This document shows positions 11,878-52,572 of a stretch of DNA of 64,000 nt, one piece after another (the first letter of the stretch is position 1; each line of letters opens with the position of its first letter). The stretch lies in assembly GCF_053078305.1 (NCBI RefSeq), contig NZ_CP166879.1. The stretch is one strand, 5' to 3'. The notes below the pieces were generated by a model. The model had not been told where the DNA came from. It was given only the letters and a program-made list of their open reading frames with translations, and did no database searches. Made by a program: the position numbers and the translations under genes.

Positions 11878-12822
11878 TTAAGATTCAGGTGTAAATTGCC
11901 AACGAGTTTCGATAACCAGCGGCCTATCTGGTGTCACCAATTCCGGCGTTAGATTTATTGCGTTAGGTGCCTGAGTCAGCGGGTTAATACAGGTGGCATC
12001 GGGCTGTTTATCAAATACCACCAGACTGTTTGCAGAAGAGATCATGGTCATCGCGAGTTTACCAGGCCACAGTAACTTAACCTTCACCCCGTCATAAAAA
12101 CCAAAACAGTCATCCCAGGGACCGACTTGAGGAGAGATGCGATTTCCAGTTGGCAGTTCATCACTACCCGCTTCTTCTTGCCAGTCCGCATCAAAAAGCA
12201 CCTGCAACGATTCTGTATTTTGCGGAGTCAGCTTTTTCGCAAACCACGGATGCCAGCCTGCGGAGGCCGGGAATGTATCGGCATATGAATGGACTTCCAG
12301 TTGCAAAACCAGCGCATCGTTCTCCAGCAAAAAAGTCTGAATCACTTCCCCTTGCCAAGGCCACGGTGAAGCCAGGGGCATACGTAAAGTCAGGGAATCT
12401 GCTGTTTTGTCGATGATTTCCCACGTTGAGTAACAAGCCATACCATGCAACGCATGTGGTGGTTTATTGGCGGGTAAAGAATAACATTGCCCACCAGCAT
12501 TCAGCGTCGCATTCCCCAGTCGCCCTGCCCACGGCACCATTGGGAAACAGCCATACTGAAAAGCTCTACGCTGCGGCTGCCATTGGCGTAATACTTCAGA
12601 ACCAAATGCCTTTAACGAGGTTATCCTGGCACCATCATGCGGATAAATCTGCAGGTGAATATTGCCTTTTTCCAGCGTCACTAACTCTCCTACAGGCCCA
12701 GGCCATGGCGCGTCAAACGCCTGTTGTAGCGCCAGGTAATGCTCGTTTTTTCGTTCAGTTTTCATGAGATTGTTCCCTGATGTAGCGGTAAGAAGCGGTT
12801 TCTTGTTCATCGGTCGGCTCAA
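11878..12822 (-). CDS. Aldose 1-epimerase (mutarotase) family protein, YihR-like; true start probably at 12765 or 12810
   Basis: 314-aa ORF, mutarotase-like composition; its 5' end overlaps the 3' end of the upstream MFS gene by up to 68 bp. Confidence 0.6.
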   Translation of the reverse strand: MSRPMNKKPLLTATSGNNLMKTERKNEHYLALQQAFDAPWPGPVGELVTLEKGNIHLQIYPHDGARITSLKAFGSEVLRQWQPQRRAFQYGCFPMVPWAGRLGNATLNAGGQCYSLPANKPPHALHGMACYSTWEIIDKTADSLTLRMPLASPWPWQGEVIQTFLLENDALVLQLEVHSYADTFPASAGWHPWFAKKLTPQNTESLQVLFDADWQEEAGSDELPTGNRISPQVGPWDDCFGFYDGVKVKLLWPGKLAMTMISSANSLVVFDKQPDATCINPLTQAPNAINLTPELVTPDRPLVIETRWQFTPES

Positions 12823-14104
12823 TCAGCCAGACGCAAACAAAGGAAAGAACTGAGACAGCAAATAAAAACAGAGCGACATACCACGGTTTTCCTCCCCCTA
12901 GCGCCAGCAAACTTGAGGCGATAAGGGGGCTTAGTCCGCCAAGAATCGCGGAAAATTGATAAGCAAAAGAAAGGCCGGTATATCGTACTTTGGTACCGAA
13001 CATGCGGGTGAAAAGTGTTGGCTGCACGGCAAACATCATCGTCGGACCTAAGTTGTAGCCGAGGATCATACTGCACCAGATGATGAGCGTACTTTTGCTA
13101 TCCAGTAATAAGAAGAAAGGAAACGCGAACAGGACACAAAATCCTGCTCCCGACAAATACAGACTTTTTTGACCTATACGATCTGATAACCATCCAACCA
13201 ATGGACAACTGAAAATACCGATCGCCGAGGCAATCAACATACCCGTCAGGGGAATATCTCGCGATAATGCTAATTGGCTGGAAATATAGACAATACCAAA
13301 GGCGTTAATAATATTAGAGGAGACACTTTCCGCCAGCCTCGCACCCAGTGCCAATAAAATATTTCGTGGATGTTTTTTGAATAATTCAATCAACGGAGGA
13401 ACGGACTTTTCTTTATTATTCGTCGTTTTTTGCTTTTGAAAATCCAGCGTTTCTTCGGTATGCAGGCGGATAAACAGCCCAACGATCAACATCACCGCAG
13501 AAAGCCAAAACGGAATGCGCCATCCCCAGGAGAGAAACTGCTCCGAAGTAAGAAAATGGTTACAGAGAGCAAAAATACCGGTTGCCAGCATAATACCCAC
13601 AGACGCAGCCGTTTGCGGGAGTGAACCTAAGAATCCGCGTCGGGATTCGGGCGCTGATTCTATGGTCATCAATGCCGCTCCACCGTACTCGCCACCAAGA
13701 CCAAAGCCCTGAATCAAACGCAGCACCATTAATACAAGCGGTGCCCAAATGCCAATTTCCTGATACGTCGGAATAAAACCAATCAAAAATGTGGAGCAAC
13801 CGACAATAGCCAGCGTCCAGATAAGTGTTATTTTTCGCCCGATTTTATCGCCAAAATGACCAAAGACGATGCCCCCTAAAGGACGAGTCAGAAAACCGAC
13901 ACCAAAGGTCGCAAAGGAAGCTATAAGACCTATAAAAGGATCGCTGTCTGGATAAAACAGCGGTGCAAATACCAGTCCTGCTGCCGTGCCAAAAATAAAG
14001 AAGTCATACCATTCCATTAACGCGCCTGCGAAACTGCCCATAACGACACGTCTCATGGCTTTACCGGAAAGCCCTTCACGCGGTGCGGGTAACTTTTCAG
14101 ACAT
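12755..14104 (-). CDS. MFS transporter, metabolite:H+ symporter (MHS, ProP/KgtP-like) family
   Basis: 449-aa 12-TM ORF with MEWYDFFIFG and GHFGDKIGRK motifs typical of MHS transporters; not the GPH-type YihO/YihP of the K-12 locus. Confidence 0.75.
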   Translation of the reverse strand: MSEKLPAPREGLSGKAMRRVVMGSFAGALMEWYDFFIFGTAAGLVFAPLFYPDSDPFIGLIASFATFGVGFLTRPLGGIVFGHFGDKIGRKITLIWTLAIVGCSTFLIGFIPTYQEIGIWAPLVLMVLRLIQGFGLGGEYGGAALMTIESAPESRRGFLGSLPQTAASVGIMLATGIFALCNHFLTSEQFLSWGWRIPFWLSAVMLIVGLFIRLHTEETLDFQKQKTTNNKEKSVPPLIELFKKHPRNILLALGARLAESVSSNIINAFGIVYISSQLALSRDIPLTGMLIASAIGIFSCPLVGWLSDRIGQKSLYLSGAGFCVLFAFPFFLLLDSKSTLIIWCSMILGYNLGPTMMFAVQPTLFTRMFGTKVRYTGLSFAYQFSAILGGLSPLIASSLLALGGGKPWYVALFLFAVSVLSFVCVWLIEPTDEQETASYRYIREQSHEN

Positions 14105-14202
14105 AATTTTCCTCTCCTGGTAGGCGAGAAATCTGGGATACGAACCACTAAACGTGGGCAGTTTGAATTAATGCGCATCGGCTTAAGCCGATGCGCATTA
14201 AA

Positions 14203-15636
14203 TTATTTCTTCAATTCAGCCAGAACCTCTGCGTCCTCAGCATCAACATTTGCACCCAGTGGTTCCCAATGAATCAATACGCAGGTCAGGAACCCCAGGA
14301 ATGGCACGATTGCCAACCAGTAAAACGCTTCAGTTTTCAACGCACCCCACAGCATCGGCCAGAAAATGAGTCCTGCAATTGCCCCTGTGCGCATAATAGC
14401 GCGGGCAAATCCGACCCCAGTAGGGCGAATAGCGGGAGGATAAGAGAGTGTGGCAATGGTCATGCCCAGCCCACCAGGACCCGCTGAATGGAAGAAAATA
14501 ATTGATCCCAATAACCCTAAAGACAGCCAGGGATTAGTCGTTGCCAGTGCGCCTAACGACAGCAATGCTAAGGTCACAACAGCAAATCCATACATCGACT
14601 GTCGGCGAGTACCCAGTCGTTGGAGAATAAACGAGCCGATCATCCCGCCTGTCACCCCACAAAGGGCATTCACGACGGCAGAACCGGTCAACGCGCCAGT
14701 AAGCCCGCCACTTATTATTCCCGCCAATGTAAGAGGAAGATAAACACCTACGGCGTTATATTGCCACGCCTGCATGGTTGCCACGACACAGCCAAGAATG
14801 GTGCGTTTGCGGTAACGATCATTAAATAAGATGCCATATCCACCACTGTATTTATTCTCTGCTTTTTCCGAGAATTTCGCTTCTGTTGTACTCGATGCCG
14901 CAACGCGAGCCTGAACACCATAACGTTTTCCCAGAATGTCGCACGCTTCCTGGTAACGCCCGACGCGTGCGGCCCACATTGCGGATTCACCAATAAAGAA
15001 GTAACGCAAAATCATGAAGATGACTGCAAAAATAGCTCCGATGAATATTCCGTAACGCCACAATTGTTCTTCAGCGATACCCGACAGAAGCAGCGGCAAA
15101 AGTACCAAATAAACAACGGTTGTCGAAACATACCAGGCCATTTGCCAGAGGTTGACCGACGTTCCGGTTTTCTTCGACGTTGAACCACGAAGCTCTGCCA
15201 CGGCATTGGTTGCCAAAGGGAAGTCGATGCCTAAACCAAAGCCCATGATGACGCGGCACACCAGCACCCACCAGATACTGGGAGCAATAGCTACCGCTGC
15301 AGCACCGATGGTGCACAGCCCCATGCCAATAATAAATGCCCGCTTTTGCCCAAAGCGGTTTATTACTCGGTTCGCTAATAAACCGCCAATTAACGCGGCG
15401 ATTAATACTGATGCATTGACGGTTGCAGCAAGACCCGGCGAAATGCCGAATTGAGCGGCAATGTATTTATTACCAAACCCCACCATCGCCGCCTGGTAGG
15501 CATCAATCAATATGCCGCCCAAAGCAATAAAAATAACGCCGATACTGGTGTTGATTGCAGAGTTCTTATTAACAATATCAATTACGTCCTGTGGCCGACT
15601 AATTGAATAAGTTGCAGGACTGGTGATTTGACTCAT
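14203..15636 (-). CDS. MFS transporter (sugar-porter / aromatic acid:H+ symporter-like)
   Basis: 477-aa polytopic ORF with MFS-type loop motifs (GQKRAFIIG, LGIDFPLATNAVAEL). Confidence 0.75.
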   Translation of the reverse strand: MSQITSPATYSISRPQDVIDIVNKNSAINTSIGVIFIALGGILIDAYQAAMVGFGNKYIAAQFGISPGLAATVNASVLIAALIGGLLANRVINRFGQKRAFIIGMGLCTIGAAAVAIAPSIWWVLVCRVIMGFGLGIDFPLATNAVAELRGSTSKKTGTSVNLWQMAWYVSTTVVYLVLLPLLLSGIAEEQLWRYGIFIGAIFAVIFMILRYFFIGESAMWAARVGRYQEACDILGKRYGVQARVAASSTTEAKFSEKAENKYSGGYGILFNDRYRKRTILGCVVATMQAWQYNAVGVYLPLTLAGIISGGLTGALTGSAVVNALCGVTGGMIGSFILQRLGTRRQSMYGFAVVTLALLSLGALATTNPWLSLGLLGSIIFFHSAGPGGLGMTIATLSYPPAIRPTGVGFARAIMRTGAIAGLIFWPMLWGALKTEAFYWLAIVPFLGFLTCVLIHWEPLGANVDAEDAEVLAELKK

Positions 15637-15705
15637 CGCAGTGTCCTTTTTAATTGTTGTAGGGTGGCGCTGACGTGACGCAGCGCCAGACAGAGATTTA
15701 GAAAA

Positions 15706-16716
15706 TCATTCCGGCGCAAATTGCAGCATGACCTTTATGGAGTCATTTTGCTGCGCGCGTTCGAATGCCGCCGCTGCATCCTCAATGGCAAATAAATCGG
15801 TAACCAGTTCACTGGTATCAAACCGCCCATCCGCCAGCCATTCGATAACAGCATCGAAATCTTCAGGGATGTACATGCCAGAGTTGAGCAAGTCACGCTC
15901 GAAACGTTGCATCATCGGTAATGGTATTTCACGCGGCCCACTTGGTACGCCCATGCACACGACGGTGCCTCCGGCATATACACGGGTACATGCATCGTTA
16001 AGCGTGGCCTGCGCTGCAACGACATCAATCGCCCCCGTAAATCGCACATCTGCGGCCAGCTCACCTGGTGCCCAAACTTCTGCTGCGCCCAGCTTTAACG
16101 CCAGCGCGCGTTTGGCAGCGTCAGGTTCAATCACGGTAATCTTACCTGCCCCCATAATGCGCAGTGCCTGCACGATGGATAAGCCTATCGTTCCGGCACC
16201 AATCACCAGTACGCTTTCCAGAGAAGCTTTCGGCATTCGGTTAACGCAGTGACGGGCACAAGCCGCCGGTTCGGCAAAGGCCAACACTTTTAGCGGTAAA
16301 GAGGCTGGTGCGACATGGCAATTACGCGCAGGAACAATGTGTTGTGAGCGAGCAAAGCCCGGTGCGCGAAAACCAGCAACCTGCGGTGGTTCACAAAGAT
16401 TAAAACGTCCTGCTTTGCAGGCTCGGCATTCCATGCAAGCCATGATGGGATCGACCACAACATGATCGCCCGGCTGTACATTTTTAACGTCGCTGCCAAC
16501 TTCCGTAACGCGCGCTGCAATTTAATGACCGGGGACGACAGGTGGTTTGGCAAACGGATGACCGCCTTTCAGAACATGCAGATCCGAACCGCATATCCCA
16601 TGGAACACAGGCGCAATCCGCACTTCGTGCGGTTTAAGTTCCTGGTGTGGTACTTCAACATATTGAGTGGTGACTTTCCCAATATCTGAAAATAAAACCT
16701 GGGTAATTTTATCCAT
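15706..16716 (-). pseudogene. Zinc-dependent alcohol dehydrogenase (MDR family) interrupted by a single in-frame TAA
   Basis: N-terminal 64-aa ORF (…CGSDLHVLKGGHPFAKPPVVPGH*) and C-terminal 250-aa ORF are in the same frame, separated only by TAA at 16522..16524 (minus strand). The stop falls where Zn-ADHs carry the Glu of the GHE motif; Rossmann motif VIGAGTIGL lies downstream. Confidence 0.7.
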
Positions 16717-16748
16717 TGTTATTCTCCAGAATCGATATCCATAGGGGA

Positions 16749-17636
16749 TTAGCGTTGCGCGATACCTTCATCGACAATTTCTGCCAACCGTTGTAAACGA
16801 GGAACAGAGACATCGCGCAGCATAATTTGTGGATCTTGTGCACCAACAACCGACGCCCAAACCGCTCGTCCAGCCAGGAAGCCTGACGCACCACCTTTCA
16901 TGGCAATACTTACTGCACGGCCAAAAATATCGGCATCAACGCCAGAAGAAAGAATTACCCACGGCATCTTCATCTGATCGTTAAGTTGCTGACAGGCGGC
17001 AAGTAAGGTTTTTTCATCGCCTTTGCCCCCTAATGGCATCTCGGCTTTGTAAAGATCAGCCTCTGTTCCACCAAGCTCTGCGGCGGCGGCAACAATGGCG
17101 CTTTCACGATCAAAGTCCCAACCGCGACGAGGTGGACGCACCACAGGTTCAATAATGCTAACCAGCCCGGCACTACGGCAGCGACGAACAAATTTATCAA
17201 CCATTGCCAGACGTTCCTCTGCGGGTTCATCTTCACGCCAGAGTACAAGTAATTTCATTGCCTTAGCCCCCATTTCACGGGCTTTATGCGGGTCGACGGA
17301 CATATCTATTTCAACGCTATCAACCGGGATGCCATTACCTGGGATAAAAAGATCGGCAGCGACAATCAGGCCGCAAGAATTAGCAACAGCGCCCTGCTCG
17401 ACTATTTGCTCAAGACAAAATTGTTTATCCGCCAGAACGGCAGAAGCATAAGGAGAAAGGATTCGGGTCGCGGCAACTTTAAAATCGGTGAGTACACTGT
17501 CGGCGATGGGTTTTGGCTGCCCTGCTGCCGCAAACATCAAGCGCATGGCCTCACGCTGATCGACAGCTAACATGGCAAATCCACCACCTGGGCGGGAGAT
17601 ATCTTTCAGCGTAAATGGGGTGAAGTGGGATGACAT
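16749..17636 (-). CDS. Class I aldolase, YihT (sulfofructose-phosphate aldolase)-like, divergent from the K-12 protein
   Basis: 295-aa ORF containing [40 protein letters not shown] and [13 protein letters not shown], blocks I recall as shared with E. coli YihT, with many substitutions elsewhere. Confidence 0.7.
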
Positions 17637-17660
17637 AGAAACTCCTGTTAATAGATAAAA

Positions 17661-18560
17661 TTAAAGACCAGCCTGCTGGCGAACCTGATTTAGCAGGGCA
17701 CTCCAGTCCTGCCGCCCTTTGCCGTCTTGACTTGCTGCAGCGTAATAACTTTCTGCTGCAATCCCCATATTGAGCGGTGCCCCCGTCTCCCGAGCGACGT
17801 CAACTGCAATACGCAGATCTTTCAACGCCAGATCCACCATGAAGGCGGGTGAAAGATCGCCTTTCAGCACTTTGCCAGGCCAGGTGGTCGTAAAATGTCC
17901 TTTCCCTGCTGCCGTACCACTCATCACCTTAATTGCGACATCAAGATTTAATCCCAGTGACTCACATAACACAGCGGCCTCGGAGGACAGCGCATTAAGC
18001 GCAATGCTCATATAGTTGTTAATTAGCTTCACGCGGATCCCCATTCCAGGGCCGCCAGCCTCGACCAGCTCATTACCCATGCACATGAGAATCGGGCGTG
18101 CACGTGCAATCTGCTCATCAGTGCCACCCGCTAAAATCAGCAATGTGCCATCAATCGCATTCACGGACGTTCTGCCCACGGGGGCGTCCATCATACTGAT
18201 GCCTTTTTCTTGTAACTCCCGTATTAATGCATCGGTCTGTAAGGGATGAATAGTCGACATATCAATCAATAACGCGTCAGATGAAACAGCCTCACAGACG
18301 CCTTTTTCCCCCAACAGAACCTGTCGAACAATGTCACCATTGGGAAGCATAGTGATGATAAATTCAGCGCCTGCTGCTGCTTCCGCTGGGGTTTGTGCCG
18401 CAGTGGCCCCCTGCGTAACTAGCGCATCGACGGCCAGTGCATTGACATCAAATACCTGCAATGAATGCCCTTTATGCAATAGATTGTTAGCCATTGGGCT
18501 ACCCATCTGCCCCAGCCCGAGAAATGCAATGGTTGCCATGAATACTCTCCTGTCTGACAT
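17661..18560 (-). CDS. NAD(P)-dependent beta-hydroxyacid dehydrogenase, YihU (sulfolactaldehyde reductase)-like, divergent; alternative start 18539
   Basis: Rossmann motif [14 protein letters not shown] near the N-terminus plus [21 protein letters not shown] and [13 protein letters not shown] blocks; roughly 70% identical to my recollection of K-12 YihU. ORF track extends further upstream to 18740. Confidence 0.7.
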
Positions 18561-18711
18561 TGACAAAATAATGACAATTGAAAATTCGTTTTCGTCTGTT
18601 TTTGAGCATATTTGTAATTTATGTTCAAAAACACGACATACATCACTAATTTGATCATTTGTGTCATTTAAATTGACCAAAGACGACAAAATTAAACAGG
18701 ACAAGACAAAT

Positions 18712-19608
18712 ATGACCAGAATTGCATGCGTGGGTATCACAGTTCAGGACAGGATTTATTCTTTGCCCACTCTGCCGGAGGGCGGCGGGAAATATCAGGC
18801 AAATCATTATCTTGAGATTGGTGGCGGCCCGGCAGCAACAGCCGCTGTTGCAATCGCAAGGCTTGGCGTGGAAGTTGATTTCATCGGTCGCGTCGGCGAT
18901 GACAGTTGTGGAAATACCTTACTTGCAGAACTTGAGGGTTGGGGCGTCAATACAGCATTTTGCCGCCGATATCCTAACGCCCGTTCGTCGCAATCAGCGA
19001 TCCTCGTTGATCAGCATGGCGAACGGATTATCGTTAATTATCCAAGTCCTGATCTCGGTACTGATGCCGAATGGTTAGAAGCGATCGATTTCTCTCGTTA
19101 TGATCTGATTCTGGCCGATGTTCGCTGGCATAGCGGTACTGAAAAAGCATTCTCGCTAGCGCGCCTTGCGGGTGTGACAACGCTTTTAGACGCCGATATG
19201 ACACCGCAGGATATTTCTCCACTTGTCGCGCTTGCCGATCACGCCGTGTTCTCAACGCCAGGGCTGAAACGCATGACTGGCCTGCAGTCACCTGAAGAAG
19301 GTTTGTTCCAGGCAACGACACAAACAGCAGGTAAAGTGTATGTTACGCTGGGTTCTGAAGGATCGTTGTGGATTGAAGATGGTCATTTGTGTCAACAGGA
19401 GGCATTTTCTGTCAATGTGGTTGATACCACTGGAGCAGGCGATGTTTTTCACGGCGCACTCGCGGTAGCGTTGGCAGAAAAAATGCCAACAAAAGAGGCT
19501 ATTCGTTTTGCCAGTGCGGTTGCCGCGATGAAATGTACCCAGCCTGGCGGTCGGGCCGGCATTCCTAATCGTGAGCAAACCGAATCATTTTTGTCACTTT
19601 ATGCGTAA
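18712..19608 (+). CDS. PfkB-family sugar kinase, YihV (sulfofructose kinase)-like, divergent
   Basis: Starts [16 protein letters not shown]; PfkB signature [17 protein letters not shown] near the C-terminus. Transcribed divergently from the yihU-like gene. Confidence 0.7.
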
Positions 19609-19647
19609 AATGGTAAACATCTACCGAGGAGGGGCAAGGGAGTATTC

Positions 19648-20436
19648 ATGAGTATCATCGAAGTGACAGGTAATCCACGCCATGACCAACTCGTTCATCT
19701 AATCGCAGAACGCGGTTATATGAATATTGAAGAACTGGCACAACTGCTGGATGTTTCAACGCAAACCGTGCGCCGGGATATCCGAAAACTCAGTGAGCAG
19801 GGCTTGATCACCCGTCATCATGGAGGGGCCGGGCGCGTCTCCAGCGTCATGAATACCGCTTTTGAGCAACGGGAACTTTCGCTCACCGCCGAGAAACGGG
19901 CGATCGCTGAGGCAGTCGCCGATTACCTTCCCGAACGCTGTACCGTCTTTATCACCATCGGTACAACCGTAGAAGCCGTTGCCAGGGCATTACTCAACCG
20001 GCGTGATTTACGCATTATCACTAACAGCCTACGTGTGGCACAGATTCTTTATAAGAATCAGGATATTGAAGTGATGGTGCCGGGAGGCACTTTACGCGCT
20101 CATAACGGCGGGATTATCGGCCCAGGAGCCGTGGATTTTATTGAAGGCTTCCGCGCAGATTATTTAATCACCAGTATAGGTGCCATTGAACATGACGGCA
20201 CCCTACTGGAATTTGATGTAAATGAAGCGTTAGTCGCGAGAACGATGATTAAACATGCGCGGAATACATTGTTAGTGGCCGATCATACGAAGTTTGCCGC
20301 GTCTGCTGCCGTTTCAATTGGCAATGCACGGAATGTCAGGGCTTTTTTTACTGATGCCCCGCCTCCCAATTCTTTCTGCCAGTTGTTAAGTGAAGAGAAT
20401 GTTGAACTGGTGGTTGCCGAGCAGGAAGTTTCCTGA
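19648..20436 (+). CDS. DeoR-family transcriptional regulator, YihW/CsqR-like
   Basis: 262-aa ORF with an N-terminal HTH (EELAQLLDVSTQTVRRDIRKL) and a DeoR C-terminal sugar-phosphate-binding domain. Confidence 0.75.
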   Translation: MSIIEVTGNPRHDQLVHLIAERGYMNIEELAQLLDVSTQTVRRDIRKLSEQGLITRHHGGAGRVSSVMNTAFEQRELSLTAEKRAIAEAVADYLPERCTVFITIGTTVEAVARALLNRRDLRIITNSLRVAQILYKNQDIEVMVPGGTLRAHNGGIIGPGAVDFIEGFRADYLITSIGAIEHDGTLLEFDVNEALVARTMIKHARNTLLVADHTKFAASAAVSIGNARNVRAFFTDAPPPNSFCQLLSEENVELVVAEQEVS

Positions 20437-50626: not shown

Positions 50627-51241
50627 TTATTCTTCAATCGCTAACAATTGCAATGAACCACGGCTAAAATCCGCCAGCTTTGCGGAAAATTCAGCCACTT
50701 TCGCCGCCGGAAGCGCCACCCGCAGCAGAACGAATGCCTGATAATCACTGTTGATAATTTTGCCGTCACACTGCCCCAGCAACGCTTCAATGCCGGTTAA
50801 CTGATGATATTCACATTGCAAAGTATATTCGGTTAATGGCGTCTTGCGTTGGGTCGTTAGCTGGCGCAGCGCCTGATTCACGCCGCCGCCATACGCTTTC
50901 ACTAACCCACCGGTGCCAAGCAATATGCCGCCGTAGTAGCGCACCACCACAGCGGTAATTTCCCCAACGCCGCTGCCCATTAGCTGGGCGAGCATCGGTT
51001 TACCTGCCGTTCCCGCCGGCTCCCCGTCGTCAGAGAAACCCAGCTGTTGAGAATCATCCGGCGCACCCGCCACCCACGCCACGCAATGGTGGCGGGCATC
51101 GGGGTGTTCTGCCCGCACCGATTCAACAAACGCTTTCGCCGCCTCAACGCCATCGGTATGCGCCAACATCGTTATGAAGCGGCTTTTTTTGATCTCTTCA
51201 ACGACCGTGACCGGTGCCGCAGGAATTAACCAGCTTTCCAT
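50627..51241 (-). CDS. yigZ: IMPACT-family protein YigZ
   Basis: About 204-aa ORF; 5' end overlaps the pepQ stop. Confidence 0.88.
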   Translation of the reverse strand: MESWLIPAAPVTVVEEIKKSRFITMLAHTDGVEAAKAFVESVRAEHPDARHHCVAWVAGAPDDSQQLGFSDDGEPAGTAGKPMLAQLMGSGVGEITAVVVRYYGGILLGTGGLVKAYGGGVNQALRQLTTQRKTPLTEYTLQCEYHQLTGIEALLGQCDGKIINSDYQAFVLLRVALPAAKVAEFSAKLADFSRGSLQLLAIEE

Positions 51242-52572
51242 CACGCCAGTTTCAGATCCCGGGTCATGTTTTCCACGTTATTTTCGTGGATCACCACGTT
51301 GTCTTCGATACGAATGCCGCCGAACGGTTTCAGTGCTTCAATTTTCTGCCAGTTGAAGTGCTTGCTGAACTGCCCTTCACGCCACGGTGCCAGTAGCGAT
51401 TCAATGAAGTAGATACCCGGTTCGATGGTTAACACCATGCCCGGCTGGAGAATACGGGTGCAGCGCAGGTACGGATATTTTGCCGGTGCCGCGAGGTGCG
51501 TACCGCTATCATCCTGCATAAAACCGGCGACGTCATGCACCTGCAGGCCCAGCGGATGGCCGATACCGTGCGGCATAAACGGTCCGGTGAGATCGTTTTC
51601 GACCATCGCTTCTTCACTCATATCGGTGATGATTTGATGTTTACGCAGCAATTTGGCGATGCGCTGATGGAACTGGATGTGGTAATCCACATAGCTAACG
51701 CCAGCTTTCATGGTCGCGATCAGCGCCAGTTGTTCATCATTTACGTCTTTCACCAGCTGTGCGTAATCGTTGTCACTTTTTGCCGACCAGGTACGGGTCA
51801 GGTCAGCGGCATAGCCGTTATATTCGGCCCCGGCATCCAGCAGGAAGCTGCGCATCTCTTCCGGCGCCTGATGATCCAGTTTGGTGTAATGCAGCACCGC
51901 AGCGTGTTCGTTGAGTGCCACAATGTTGCTGTAAGGTACGTCGGTATCACGATGACCGGTCGCAGTCAGATAGGCAATATTGATATCGAACTCGCTCATG
52001 CCAGAACGGAACGCTTCTTCTGCCGCGCGATGACCGTTGACCGCCATTTTCTGCGCTTCACGCATACAGGCCAGCTCGTACTCGGTTTTGAAGGAGCGGT
52101 AGTAATGCAGGTAGTCGATAACCCCTTTCGGGTTGATATTGCTGGCCTCAATACCCAGTTGCAGCGCACGCTCCGGCACCGGACCGATATAACCGATATT
52201 GCCGCGCGCAGCAGGCAGCAGGCTACCAATGCCATCGGCTTTCGGCAGCGCGATCACTTCCACATCTTCAGTCCAGAAGGAGGTCGGCAGCGGTTCGACG
52301 TTGTGCCAGTAATCAACCGGCAGATAAAACCACAGTTTCGGCTTGTTCACGCCATCCACCAGCAACCAGCAGTTTGGCACCTGAGTTACCGGCACCCACG
52401 CTTTGAATTGCGGGTTCACTTTAAACGGATAGGGATGATCGTCGAGAAAAACATTGAACAGTTCGCCGGAGTGAATAAGTAACGCATCCAGCTTGAAGCG
52501 CGTCAGCGCATCGCGAGTTCGTTCCTGCAATGTAGCTATATGATTTTTATAGAGCGAGGCCAGTGATTCCAT
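51241..52572 (-). CDS. pepQ: Xaa-Pro dipeptidase (prolidase)
   Basis: 443-aa M24B metallopeptidase ORF with His/Asp/Glu metal-ligand blocks ([20 protein letters not shown]). Confidence 0.95.

Follow-up and report, generated by a model that had tools for sequence, protein, structure and literature searches.

The operators of GlpR are tandem 20-bp palindromes with the half-site WATGTTCGWT, that of DeoR is a 16-bp palindrome (TGTTAGAATTCTAACA) present at three looping operators, and AgaR recognises a T-rich direct-repeat consensus. The ydj cluster of E. coli combines a DeoR regulator (YdjF) with a kinase (YdjH), an aldolase (YdjI), Zn-dependent dehydrogenases (YdjJ and YdjL) and an MFS transporter (YdjK). 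Closest to the locus analysed here is csqR/yihUTS-yihV of E. coli K-12, in which the region between the divergent yihU and yihV genes is an established target of CsqR (YihW). Gel shifts and AFM with the K-12 system show large cooperative complexes that fail to enter the gel, and gSELEX identifies essentially one target in the genome for K-12 CsqR. The strongest YihW ChIP-exo peak in K-12 (signal/noise 168) is a single sharp peak of 41 bp at 4071641–4071681 (U00096.2).

The 'short' cassette of Nissle 1917 has been studied by Kaznadzey et al. (2025; PMC12608037), whose gel shifts detected binding of the Nissle yihU/V fragment by Nissle YihW as well as by K-12 CsqR, and showed that each protein binds the DNA of the other strain. 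In the same study, YihW at 37 °C bound the Nissle fragment more weakly than the K-12 fragment, sulfoquinovose only weakly dissociated the YihW complex, binding to the yihV/W fragment was weak and, unlike the K-12 cassette, the short cassette in Nissle was not induced by sulfoquinovose. The authors advise against the name CsqR for the Nissle-type protein and, given also the lack of sulfoquinovose induction, the same name is doubtful for the operators to which an earlier note had applied it in the DNA described here.

Layout of the locus and its regulator

The window, a 64,000-nt stretch of NZ_CP166879.1, is E. coli DNA with a Nissle-1917-type 'short' yih cassette, whose two divergent units flank a control spacer of 172 bp (18540–18711, 29.7% G+C). 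The leftward operon starts with a yihU-like sulfolactaldehyde-reductase gene (17661–18539, minus strand), which matches the NF012005 sulfolactaldehyde 3-reductase equivalog (576 bits vs a cut-off of 348) and is likewise annotated by RefSeq in ATCC 8739 and Nissle. It continues with five further minus-strand genes (11878–17636), encoding a yihT-like aldolase (16749–17636), a Zn-dependent dehydrogenase (15706–16716), two MFS transporters (14203–15636 and 12755–14104) and an aldose 1-epimerase (11878–12765). The rightward unit, on the plus strand, comprises a yihV-like PfkB-family kinase gene (18712–19608; 67% protein identity to the K-12 sulfofructose kinase) and, downstream of it, a yihW-like DeoR/GlpR-family regulator gene (19648–20436). 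The spacer occupies the same place between yihU and yihV as in K-12, where it is 167 bp long; relative to K-12, the cassette lacks ompL and yihOPQRS and is inverted in the chromosome. Its gene kinds are those of the ydj cluster (kinase, aldolase, Zn-dependent dehydrogenase, MFS transporter and DeoR regulator), but the ydj proteins are not orthologous to those of the window, whose kinase, aldolase and reductase retain the pockets that bind the sulfonate group in sulfo-EMP enzymes. Among the pocket residues listed for these enzymes (PMC8006165), the kinase keeps the triad K27-N109-R138 (together with the catalytic D244), the reductase keeps R123, N174 and S178, and the aldolase keeps R253 and A26.

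YihW gives full-length matches to ten NCBIfam models of DeoR/GlpR-type regulators (best 2e-76), as expected of a family member with a winged helix-turn-helix at its N-terminus and a DeoR-type sensor domain, and the RefSeq annotation agrees. GlpR is the best of these, yet the score of 256 bits lies below the cut-off of 331, and YihW is therefore not GlpR. The protein is 72% identical to K-12 CsqR over 260 residues; its N-terminal 62 residues contain 7 differences, none of which falls in the recognition helix or wing, and residues 33–60 (LLDVSTQTVRRDIRKLSEQGLITRHHGG) are identical. Since the DNA-reading residues are the same, YihW would be expected to recognise the same operator as CsqR, and this likeness of the DNA-binding domains fits the published cross-binding. 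The gel-shift primers of Kaznadzey et al. (2025) map to 18477–18741 of the window, whose spacer is identical to that of Nissle 1917 at 170 of 172 positions and differs only at 18639–18640. Binding of the regulator to the spacer region is thus already known, having been published for a virtually identical sequence and established for CsqR at the orthologous K-12 region; as a regulated region, the spacer is real but ordinary and already described.

Conserved elements of the spacer

The spacer was compared with those of 10 same-cassette loci from 7 genera and about 50 K-12-type loci, which are phylogenetically related, so that counts of loci are not independent. Spacers of related loci (about 70) are mostly 152–172 bp long, with a few in Yersinia, Serratia and Vibrio reaching 184–351 bp. 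Two parts are strongly conserved, a central dyad (18589–18637) and a block at 18643–18673, in which 69% and 81% of positions, respectively, are invariant among the 10 short-type loci, as against 8–12% of third codon positions in the flanking genes. In an alignment of 60 loci from the two cassette types, conservation of the central core (about 18595–18637) mostly reaches 95% or more, and the dyad of the K-12 csqR region is nearly identical to that of the window. The strongest K-12 ChIP-exo peak (L002, 13618–13658) aligns with 18583–18623 of the window; this is K-12 evidence transferred by alignment, with a genome-version conversion that is uncertain by about 2 nt. The earlier note had proposed that the DeoR-type neighbour binds this spacer through listed repeats. 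For the region, this agrees with the published gel shift and the near-identical DNA-binding domain, but the operator is most likely the central dyad, which overlaps the projected ChIP-exo region and is missing from that list.

The centre of the dyad (18605–18626, unstranded), with the invariant sequence CATATTTGTAATT, is at least 95% conserved in 60 loci and covered by the projected peak up to 18623. A repeat search finds an inverted repeat here (18597–18610 and 18620–18633) that is 93% complementary. A hairpin formed by this repeat was considered and rejected: its inner pairs are broken in K-12 with no compensating changes, and the arms are kept as sequence, not as a stem. Within the right half, TATGTTCAAA (18620–18629) matches the GlpR half-site at 8 of 10 positions, and the second-strongest K-12 YihW ChIP-exo peak lies at the glpA promoter, with the sequence AAAAAACGAAC.

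Alignment with ATTGA-N6-TCACT of K-12 suggests a candidate CRP site, CACGA-N6-TCACT (18632–18647, unstranded), of which only the right half is good and conserved (TCAC at 18643–18646 is invariant) and in whose 6-nt spacer both differences from Nissle fall. The site would lie about 41 bp upstream of the predicted yihV start, the class II standard being TGTGA-N6-TCACA near −41.5; binding of CRP to the yihU/V spacer has been published for K-12 only (PMC5816610). The second conserved block, TCACTAATTTGATCATTTGTGTCATTTAAAT (18643–18673, plus strand), is specific to the short type; K-12-type loci have another sequence in this position, so that the segment from −35 to −10 of the yihV promoter is not the same in the window as in K-12. 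Degenerate box-like elements in tandem occur within the block, as does the predicted yihV −10 (TTAAAT/TAAATT, 18668–18674, plus strand), which is aligned with TAAAAT in most loci. The major K-12 yihV start maps to −25/−27 from the ATG, just downstream of the aligned TAAAAT, and K-12 yihU transcription starts are scattered (PMC5816610). A simple sigma-70 promoter and terminator scan of 18400–18850 found nothing and, with the yihU starts so scattered, the promoter assignments made here by alignment with the published K-12 starts are weak. Putative Shine-Dalgarno sequences are read for yihU as AGGAG (18547–18551, minus strand), where CTCC is invariant in the short-type alignment, and for yihV as AGGA (18698–18701, plus strand), where only the second G (18700) is strictly invariant in the 10 short-type loci. 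An Rfam search of the spacer returned no family, the single match being a spurious snoRNA (E = 0.15, below the gathering score).

A proposed 12-nt box and mode of regulation

The longest substring common to the U/V region and the V/W region (the yihW promoter) of the window is 8 nt, which is not significant (P = 0.45), and a motif cannot therefore be derived from the window alone. The two corresponding regions of K-12, both known CsqR targets, have an exact 13-mer in common, TGTCACTTTTTGT (reached in 0 of 500 shuffles), and from these regions we infer that the recognition unit of YihW is a 12-nt box, TGTCAYTTTTTG. This box replaced an 18-nt repeated unit spotted by eye (TGTC-NN-TTTTTG-NN-CAT). 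That unit was discarded after a scan with a rigid 17-nt matrix, derived from 23 distinct sequences of the core's left arm, which gave some second copies in orthologues (P = 0.003–0.017) and none of significance in the window (best score 1.8 bits, P = 0.61) or K-12 (P = 0.33).

Sites matching the box at 10 or more of 12 positions number 4 in the K-12 spacer against 0.19 expected (0 of 5000 shuffles), and average 3.3 in 57 long-type spacers (0.17 expected) and 1.3 in the 10 short-type spacers (0.16 expected). In Vibrio and Serratia sp. DD3, whose spacers cannot be aligned with the rest, tandem boxes nevertheless occur at a distance of exactly 10 bp. The four K-12 sites include a perfect plus-strand box next to yihU, whereas the window spacer has only matches of 9–10/12, with 4 sites at 9/12 or better against 1.4 expected (P = 0.047) and 1 site at 10/12 or better (P = 0.21), for a box that is itself T-rich in an AT-rich spacer. 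This degeneracy might explain why Nissle-type DNA is reported to be bound more weakly than K-12 DNA. Across the 64-kb window, the box with up to two mismatches occurs at chance level (17 vs 14), and the one exact match (51771–51782), inside a G+C-rich coding region, is probably fortuitous. T-rich box-like sequences also adjoin the secondary K-12 YihW ChIP-exo peaks at glpA and ssuE but are too weak to count as independent support. In a full-text literature search, neither 'CsqR-box' nor the sequences of box and core gave anything relevant; the primary CsqR paper (Shimada et al., 2019), outside that search, may already define the site.

Four such boxes can be placed in the window spacer. B2 (CGTCTGTTTTTG, 9/12, 18593–18604, plus strand) forms the left arm of the dyad; about 60 loci, drawn from the two cassette types, conserve it, and it lies inside the projected ChIP-exo peak, with 75% of positions invariant. 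B3 (TGTCGTGTTTTT, 9/12, 18627–18638, minus strand) forms the right arm, and its K-12 equivalent, TGTCAATTTTTT, scores 10/12. On the yihU side, B1 (TGTCATTATTTT, 10/12, 18565–18576, minus strand) is on the opposite strand from the yihU-proximal box of K-12; a box of 9–10/12 occurs at the same aligned position in 10 of 10 short-type loci, its sequence drifting, with 58% of positions invariant. B4 (TGTCGTCTTTGG, 9/12, 18677–18688, minus strand), over the predicted yihV start, reaches 10/12 at the same position in three Citrobacter loci and Mixta, but with only 33% of positions invariant it is a weakly supported candidate. The best box of the locus lies outside the spacer, within the terminal (3') part of yihV, where it closely precedes a TAAAAT −10 of yihW (TGTCACTTTATG, 11/12, 19592–19603, plus strand); it is invariant in 5 aligned loci, synonymous positions included, and the K-12 locus too has a box over the yihW promoter, where the equivalent is the 13-mer already described.

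The strings that the earlier note had put forward as operators, ctgacattgacaaaataatgacaattga (18554–18581), gtgtcatttaaattgacc (18661–18678), aagacgacaaaatt (18680–18693) and caggacaagacaaat (18697–18711), are all present in the AT-rich divergent spacer as it described. The spacer contains 9 copies of GACA/TGTC where 5000 shuffles that preserve its dinucleotides predict 2.6 (P = 0.0006), 5 copies of GACAA where they predict 1.1 (P = 0.003) and 4 of TGACA/TGTCA where they predict 1.45 (P = 0.04); since the choice of tests followed inspection of the sequence, the evidence is marginal for TGACA and moderately convincing for GACA. It is nevertheless quite unlikely that these visible TGACA/GACA repeats are themselves the operators, bound as an array in which the centre has no special part. 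The excess of GACA would suit such an array, the first five bases of the proposed box read TGACA on the opposite strand, the copy at 18572–18576 belongs to B1 and the third string overlaps B4, and K-12-type spacers carry conserved tandem TGTCA boxes adjoining yihU. The copies at 18555 and 18561, however, are Escherichia-specific, being absent even from the same-cassette loci of Citrobacter, Mixta, Trabulsiella, Phytobacter, Enterobacter and Erwinia, and the four strings have 21–56% invariant positions among the 10 short-type loci compared with 69–81% in the central blocks. None of the four covers the projected ChIP-exo peak, and the third and fourth, both poorly conserved (21% and 27% invariant), lie for the most part in the predicted 5' UTR of yihV and its Shine-Dalgarno region.

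The core could instead owe its conservation to promoter elements or to the site of another protein. On one such account, which we regard as unlikely, the conserved centre is mainly promoter architecture (overlapping divergent −10/−35 or UP-like elements and a CRP site) and YihW is a low-specificity cooperative polymer on AT-rich DNA. The large complexes seen for K-12 in gel shifts and by AFM would be consistent with this, as would the two complexes that RNA polymerase forms on the K-12 spacer, to which CRP binds as well (PMC5816610); the invariant TTTGTAATTTAT also holds a −10-like sequence on each strand (TAATTT on one, TAAATT on the other), and the significance of the boxes in the window is marginal. 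Against it, ChIP-exo gives one sharp peak and not a broad signal, an essentially single genomic target in gSELEX would be surprising for a non-specific binder, and neither the 13-mer shared by the K-12 targets nor the roughly 20-fold enrichment of boxes in K-12-type spacers is expected of promoter elements; no consensus sigma-70 promoter was found in the spacer.

On balance we favour, as the probable arrangement, a shared control spacer containing a YihW operator dyad with flanking boxes, a reading that draws on what was computed here: how the spacer is conserved, where the ChIP-exo peak projects, how often the boxes occur and how closely the DNA-binding domain matches that of CsqR. The spacer would be the common control region of yihU-yihT-dehydrogenase-MFS-MFS-epimerase on the left and of yihV with the downstream yihW on the right, and YihW would bind it cooperatively, reading 5'-TGTCAYTTTTTG-3'. 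The primary operator would be the inverted pair B2 and B3 around the invariant AT-rich centre (CATATTTGTAATTTATG), flanked by weaker boxes, B1 at the putative yihU promoter and B4 at the putative yihV start, with degenerate tandem copies between the −35 and −10 of the yihV promoter (18643–18673). Occupied boxes may occlude both divergent promoters until a sulfosugar effector frees YihW, and the better box at 19592–19603, over the yihW promoter, may serve autoregulation. Such a system would resemble GlpR in having several operators across divergent promoters and cooperative binding, but the proposed YihW box has a TGTC head and a T-run in place of TGTTCG, and the central boxes are 34 bp apart from centre to centre where GlpR half-sites abut. 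With DeoR and AgaR, members of the same regulator family, it would have in common T-rich boxes starting with TGT, several dispersed operators and oligomeric binding, although the sequences differ. The spacer finding itself adds little; what is added here is a testable map at nucleotide level, consisting of the central dyad and the flanking 12-nt boxes.

The eight-gene cassette and its possible substrate

The 'short' cassette is really a conserved eight-gene cassette. The identical eight genes occur in identical order at 10 loci in 7 genera, and tblastn found no match to YihQ, YihS, YihR, YihO, YihP or OmpL in the window cassette or in 10 other same-type loci (9 of them complete). What the cassette encodes in place of these proteins, in contrast to K-12, is the Zn-dependent dehydrogenase, a pair of other MFS transporters and an epimerase that is unrelated to YihR (22% identity). 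In NCBIfam the dehydrogenase is closest to NF007489/PRK10083 (103 bits; cut-off 376), a model named only 'Zn-dependent oxidoreductase' that represents the YdjJ-type protein. The eight-gene cassette replaces the K-12 sulfoquinovose genes in about a quarter of complete E. coli genomes, among them Nissle 1917, CFT073, O104:H4 and HS.

Another reading, in which the repeats arose by chance in AT-rich DNA and the cassette is decaying and no longer regulated, is highly improbable and already largely refuted by conservation. The failure of sulfoquinovose to induce the short cassette and the weak YihW binding at 37 °C (PMC12608037) would fit decay, as would a nonsense codon (16522–16524) in the dehydrogenase gene of the window. 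That codon, however, is private to the window strain, the eight genes and the spacer are kept across 7 genera, the conserved spacer blocks lie far above synonymous sites, and the catalytic and sulfonate-pocket residues are intact.

A possible, if tentative, alternative to a truncated remnant is that the eight genes of the short cassette form a complete pathway, spread by horizontal transfer, whose substrate is a sulfonated sugar or sugar alcohol distinct from sulfoquinovose. In such a pathway, the polyol-dehydrogenase-like Zn enzyme would replace the isomerase in the route to sulfofructose, the two different MFS transporters would import the substrate and export dihydroxypropanesulfonate, and YihW would exert control through an array of TGTCAYTTTTTG boxes, answering another effector. 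A literature search for sulfoquinovitol and similar names found nothing. This wider setting, a cassette of many E. coli genomes whose enzymes retain sulfonate-binding pockets, is more interesting than the spacer. If the pathway does serve another substrate, a retuned regulatory circuit, and not decay, would account for the weakness both of the boxes and of the response to sulfoquinovose.

A short yih cassette with a published regulator

The spacer (18540–18711; 172 bp, 29.7% G+C) separates a minus-strand yihU-like gene (17661–18539), which scores 576 bits (cut-off 348) with the equivalog model for sulfolactaldehyde 3-reductase, from a plus-strand PfkB-family kinase gene to its right (yihV-like; 18712–19608), which is followed by a plus-strand DeoR/GlpR-family regulator gene (yihW-like; 19648–20436). 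The DNA is that of E. coli, and part of the locus is matched in 5401 of 5426 complete E. coli genomes: in 1365 at 90% identity or more (including ATCC 8739, HS, CFT073, O104:H4 and Nissle 1917) and in 4036 at only 60–80%, a class that includes the K-12 arrangement ompL-yihOPQRSTUVW. This is what Kaznadzey et al., 2025 (PMC12608037) call the 'short yih cassette'. It shares its chromosomal site with the K-12 cassette but lies in the opposite orientation.

Binding of YihW to the yihU/V spacer is already published. The YihW proteins of Nissle and of K-12 (where it is called CsqR) were each gel-shifted with yihU/V fragments of both strains; for Nissle YihW, binding to the Nissle fragment was better at 30°C than at 37°C, and at 37°C the K-12 fragment was bound more strongly than the Nissle one; K-12 CsqR also bound the Nissle fragment (PMC12608037). 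Sulfoquinovose dissociated these complexes, less well with Nissle DNA, and gave no induction of the short cassette in vivo (PMC12608037). The gel-shift primers of that study map to 18477–18741, and the Nissle spacer differs from that of the window solely at 18639–18640, which reads TA in the window, as against CG in Nissle 1917, ATCC 8739 and the remaining strains of the comparison. The binding assay that the earlier note proposed has thus in effect been done by others, with a positive result for the whole fragment. YihW of the window is 72% identical to CsqR overall, and identical to it across residues 33–60 (recognition helix and wing), in agreement with the published cross-binding. A shared protein specificity implies that the specific operator is confined to elements common to both cassette types.

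Repeats, conservation and the position of the operator

The earlier note proposed candidate operators at four TGACA/GACA-type strings, all of which are present (18554–18581, 18661–18678, 18680–18693 and 18697–18711). By comparison with 5000 dinucleotide-preserving shuffles of the spacer, GACA/TGTC is found nine times against 2.6 expected (P = 0.0006), GACAA five times against 1.1 (P = 0.003) and TGACA/TGTCA four times against 1.45 (P = 0.04); as these tests were picked post hoc, the last enrichment is marginal. The repeats are real. The second string also contains a perfect 15-bp palindrome, GTCATTTAAATTGAC, which overlaps the predicted yihV −10 element and is specific to Escherichia, with GTCATTAAAATGAAC or GTCATTAAAATGAGC at that place in other genera.

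A single scan of reference genomes with the kinase as query returned 76 loci, which gene content splits into about 60 of K-12 type and ten with the window's cassette (nine complete, L003–L010 and L067, and the contig-truncated L074). The latter come from seven genera: Escherichia, Citrobacter (C. amalonaticus and C. sedlakii), Mixta, Trabulsiella, Phytobacter, Enterobacter and Erwinia. The spacer is 152–172 bp long in most loci. Across ten short-type sequences (the window and the nine complete loci), only 8–12% of third codon positions in the flanking genes are invariant, and the four strings reach 32%, 56%, 21% and 27%, while a central segment (18589–18637) reaches 69% and a second segment (18643–18673) 81%. 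That the locus might be decaying is contradicted by conservation across the seven genera. In 60 loci of both cassette types, most positions of the core centre, GTCTGTTTTTGA.C.TATTTGTAATTTAT..TCAAAAA...GACA, are conserved at 95% or more. The TGACA copies at 18555 and 18561 are confined to Escherichia, and just TG...AAA.A...ACA is retained of this stretch elsewhere.

ChIP-exo data from K-12 provide an in vivo anchor for these patterns. Gao et al., 2021 (PMC8464067) give eight YihW sites in their supplement, and by far the strongest (4071641–4071681, signal/noise 168) lies beside yihV. Its coordinates are those of U00096.2, consistent with a yihV start at 4071737 in that numbering; the site converts to about 13618–13658 of the K-12 locus (L002; uncertainty about 2 nt), aligning with 18583–18623 of the window, the left arm and centre of the conserved core. 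The four strings all lie outside this projected region. Both the conservation pattern and the ChIP-exo projection disfavour the model in which the listed strings are themselves the operators. The earlier note had the right region and, in part, the right motif, but it missed the probable main operator.

Two of the three strongest secondary K-12 peaks lie at the glpA promoter (GlpR operator territory) and the promoter of ssuE, a sulfonate-utilisation gene; the third is at rplC. T-rich box-like sequences adjoin the first two (AAAAAACGAAC and TGTTCTTTTTTTG), which hints at cross-recognition of GlpR-type sites by YihW.

A candidate YihW box and predicted promoters

The two established CsqR targets in K-12, namely the U/V spacer and the sequence preceding yihW, have an exact 13-mer in common, TGTCACTTTTTGT, a result reached in 0 of 500 shuffles. 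For the derived box, TGTCAYTTTTTG, the K-12 spacer holds four sites matching at 10/12 or better against 0.19 expected, and none of 5000 shuffles held as many. Such sites average 3.3 against 0.17 expected in 57 K-12-type spacers and 1.3 against 0.16 in ten short-type spacers, counts that are non-independent as the loci are related to each other. The spacers of Vibrio and Serratia sp. DD3 are unalignable with the rest, yet carry tandem boxes exactly 10 bp apart. YihW might instead coat the spacer non-specifically, with the conserved segments reflecting promoter architecture; this possible reading is disfavoured by the sharp ChIP-exo peak, the essentially single gSELEX target and the K-12 box statistics.

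Under the specific-box reading, the window spacer contains four candidate sites against 1.4 expected (P = 0.047), one of them at 10/12 (P = 0.21). These are B1 (18565–18576, minus strand, TGTCATTATTTT, 10/12), B2 (18593–18604, plus, CGTCTGTTTTTG, 9/12), B3 (18627–18638, minus, TGTCGTGTTTTT, 9/12) and B4 (18677–18688, minus, TGTCGTCTTTGG, 9/12). B2 and B3 form inverted repeats about an axis at 18615–18616, on either side of an invariant CATATTTGTAATT. B1 contains the third TGACA copy of the earlier note and recurs at one aligned position in each of the ten short-type loci; B4 overlaps the third string. We infer a link between the degenerate boxes of the window and the weaker binding that has been reported with Nissle DNA. 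Most other genera with the cassette have AAGTCA(C)TTTTCGTCTG at 18585–18588, an extra GTCA box head 9–10 bp before B2, in place of which Escherichia has AATTCGTTTTCGTCTG; one box may have been lost here, which could contribute to that weaker binding.

The best box of the locus, TGTCACTTTATG (19592–19603, 11/12), lies in the last yihV codons just upstream of a TAAAAT hexamer, the predicted −10 element of yihW, and does not vary at the synonymous positions of the C-terminal yihV codons in five diverged loci, a pattern that points to coding and regulatory constraint acting together. Over the whole 64 kb, TGTCACTTTTTG is matched exactly just once (51771–51782), in G+C-rich sequence inside a 443-codon minus-strand reading frame (51241–52572), and this match is probably due to chance; apart from yihV, no YihW site is listed by K-12 ChIP-exo in the equivalent part of the chromosome.

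A simple consensus promoter scan found no promoter. The major K-12 yihV start lies 25–27 nt before the ATG, just after TAAAAT (PMC5816610), and alignment with it places a predicted −10 element (TTAAAT/TAAATT) at 18668–18674 and a predicted start near 18681, under B4. Given that start, a weak candidate CRP-like site (CACGA-N6-TCACT, 18632–18647) would be centred near −41; CRP binding to the K-12 spacer is published (PMC5816610). The TA/CG difference from other strains falls within its 6-nt spacer. For yihU, whose K-12 starts are scattered (PMC5816610), our guess is a minus-strand extended −10 (TGT-CATTAT) coincident with B1. The very conserved block 18643–18673 is a feature of the short type only and might be interpreted as a tandem of three degenerate boxes at a spacing of about 10 bp. 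A cis-regulatory RNA is not supported, since an Rfam search with the spacer gave no match.

An eight-gene cassette

The short cassette has been described as yihTUVW (PMC12608037). Beyond yihU and yihT lie four further co-directional genes, encoding a Zn-dependent dehydrogenase, two MFS transporters and an aldose 1-epimerase, and these are seen in all eleven short-type loci (the window, nine complete orthologues and the truncated L074) as well as in ATCC 8739 and Nissle. The whole block (11878–20436) runs aldose 1-epimerase, two MFS transporters, Zn-dependent polyol-dehydrogenase-like enzyme, yihT and yihU, then yihV and yihW, and is present in the window and in L001, L003–L010, L067, L074 and L079, across seven genera.

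The dehydrogenase is the best-conserved cassette protein across genera (90–94% identity); among solved structures it is closest to RspB, ketose reductase and the sorbitol, L-threonine and galactitol-1-phosphate dehydrogenases. Its gene in the window (15706–16716) carries a nonsense codon at codon 65 (16522–16524, minus strand) which truncates the protein at PGH*, within what is the GHE zinc-ligand motif in its relatives. The exact 61-mer with this allele occurs in none of 5426 complete E. coli genomes, the best matches being one base off, so the allele is either unique to this strain or the product of a sequencing error. The sulfonate-binding residues that Sharma et al., 2021 (PMC8006165) defined are all conserved in the kinase, aldolase and reductase of the window, and we speculate that the cassette is a complete alternative route from a sulfonated substrate to sulfofructose. 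Of the points made here, only the box model and the interpretation of the cassette as an eight-gene unit are both new and testable.
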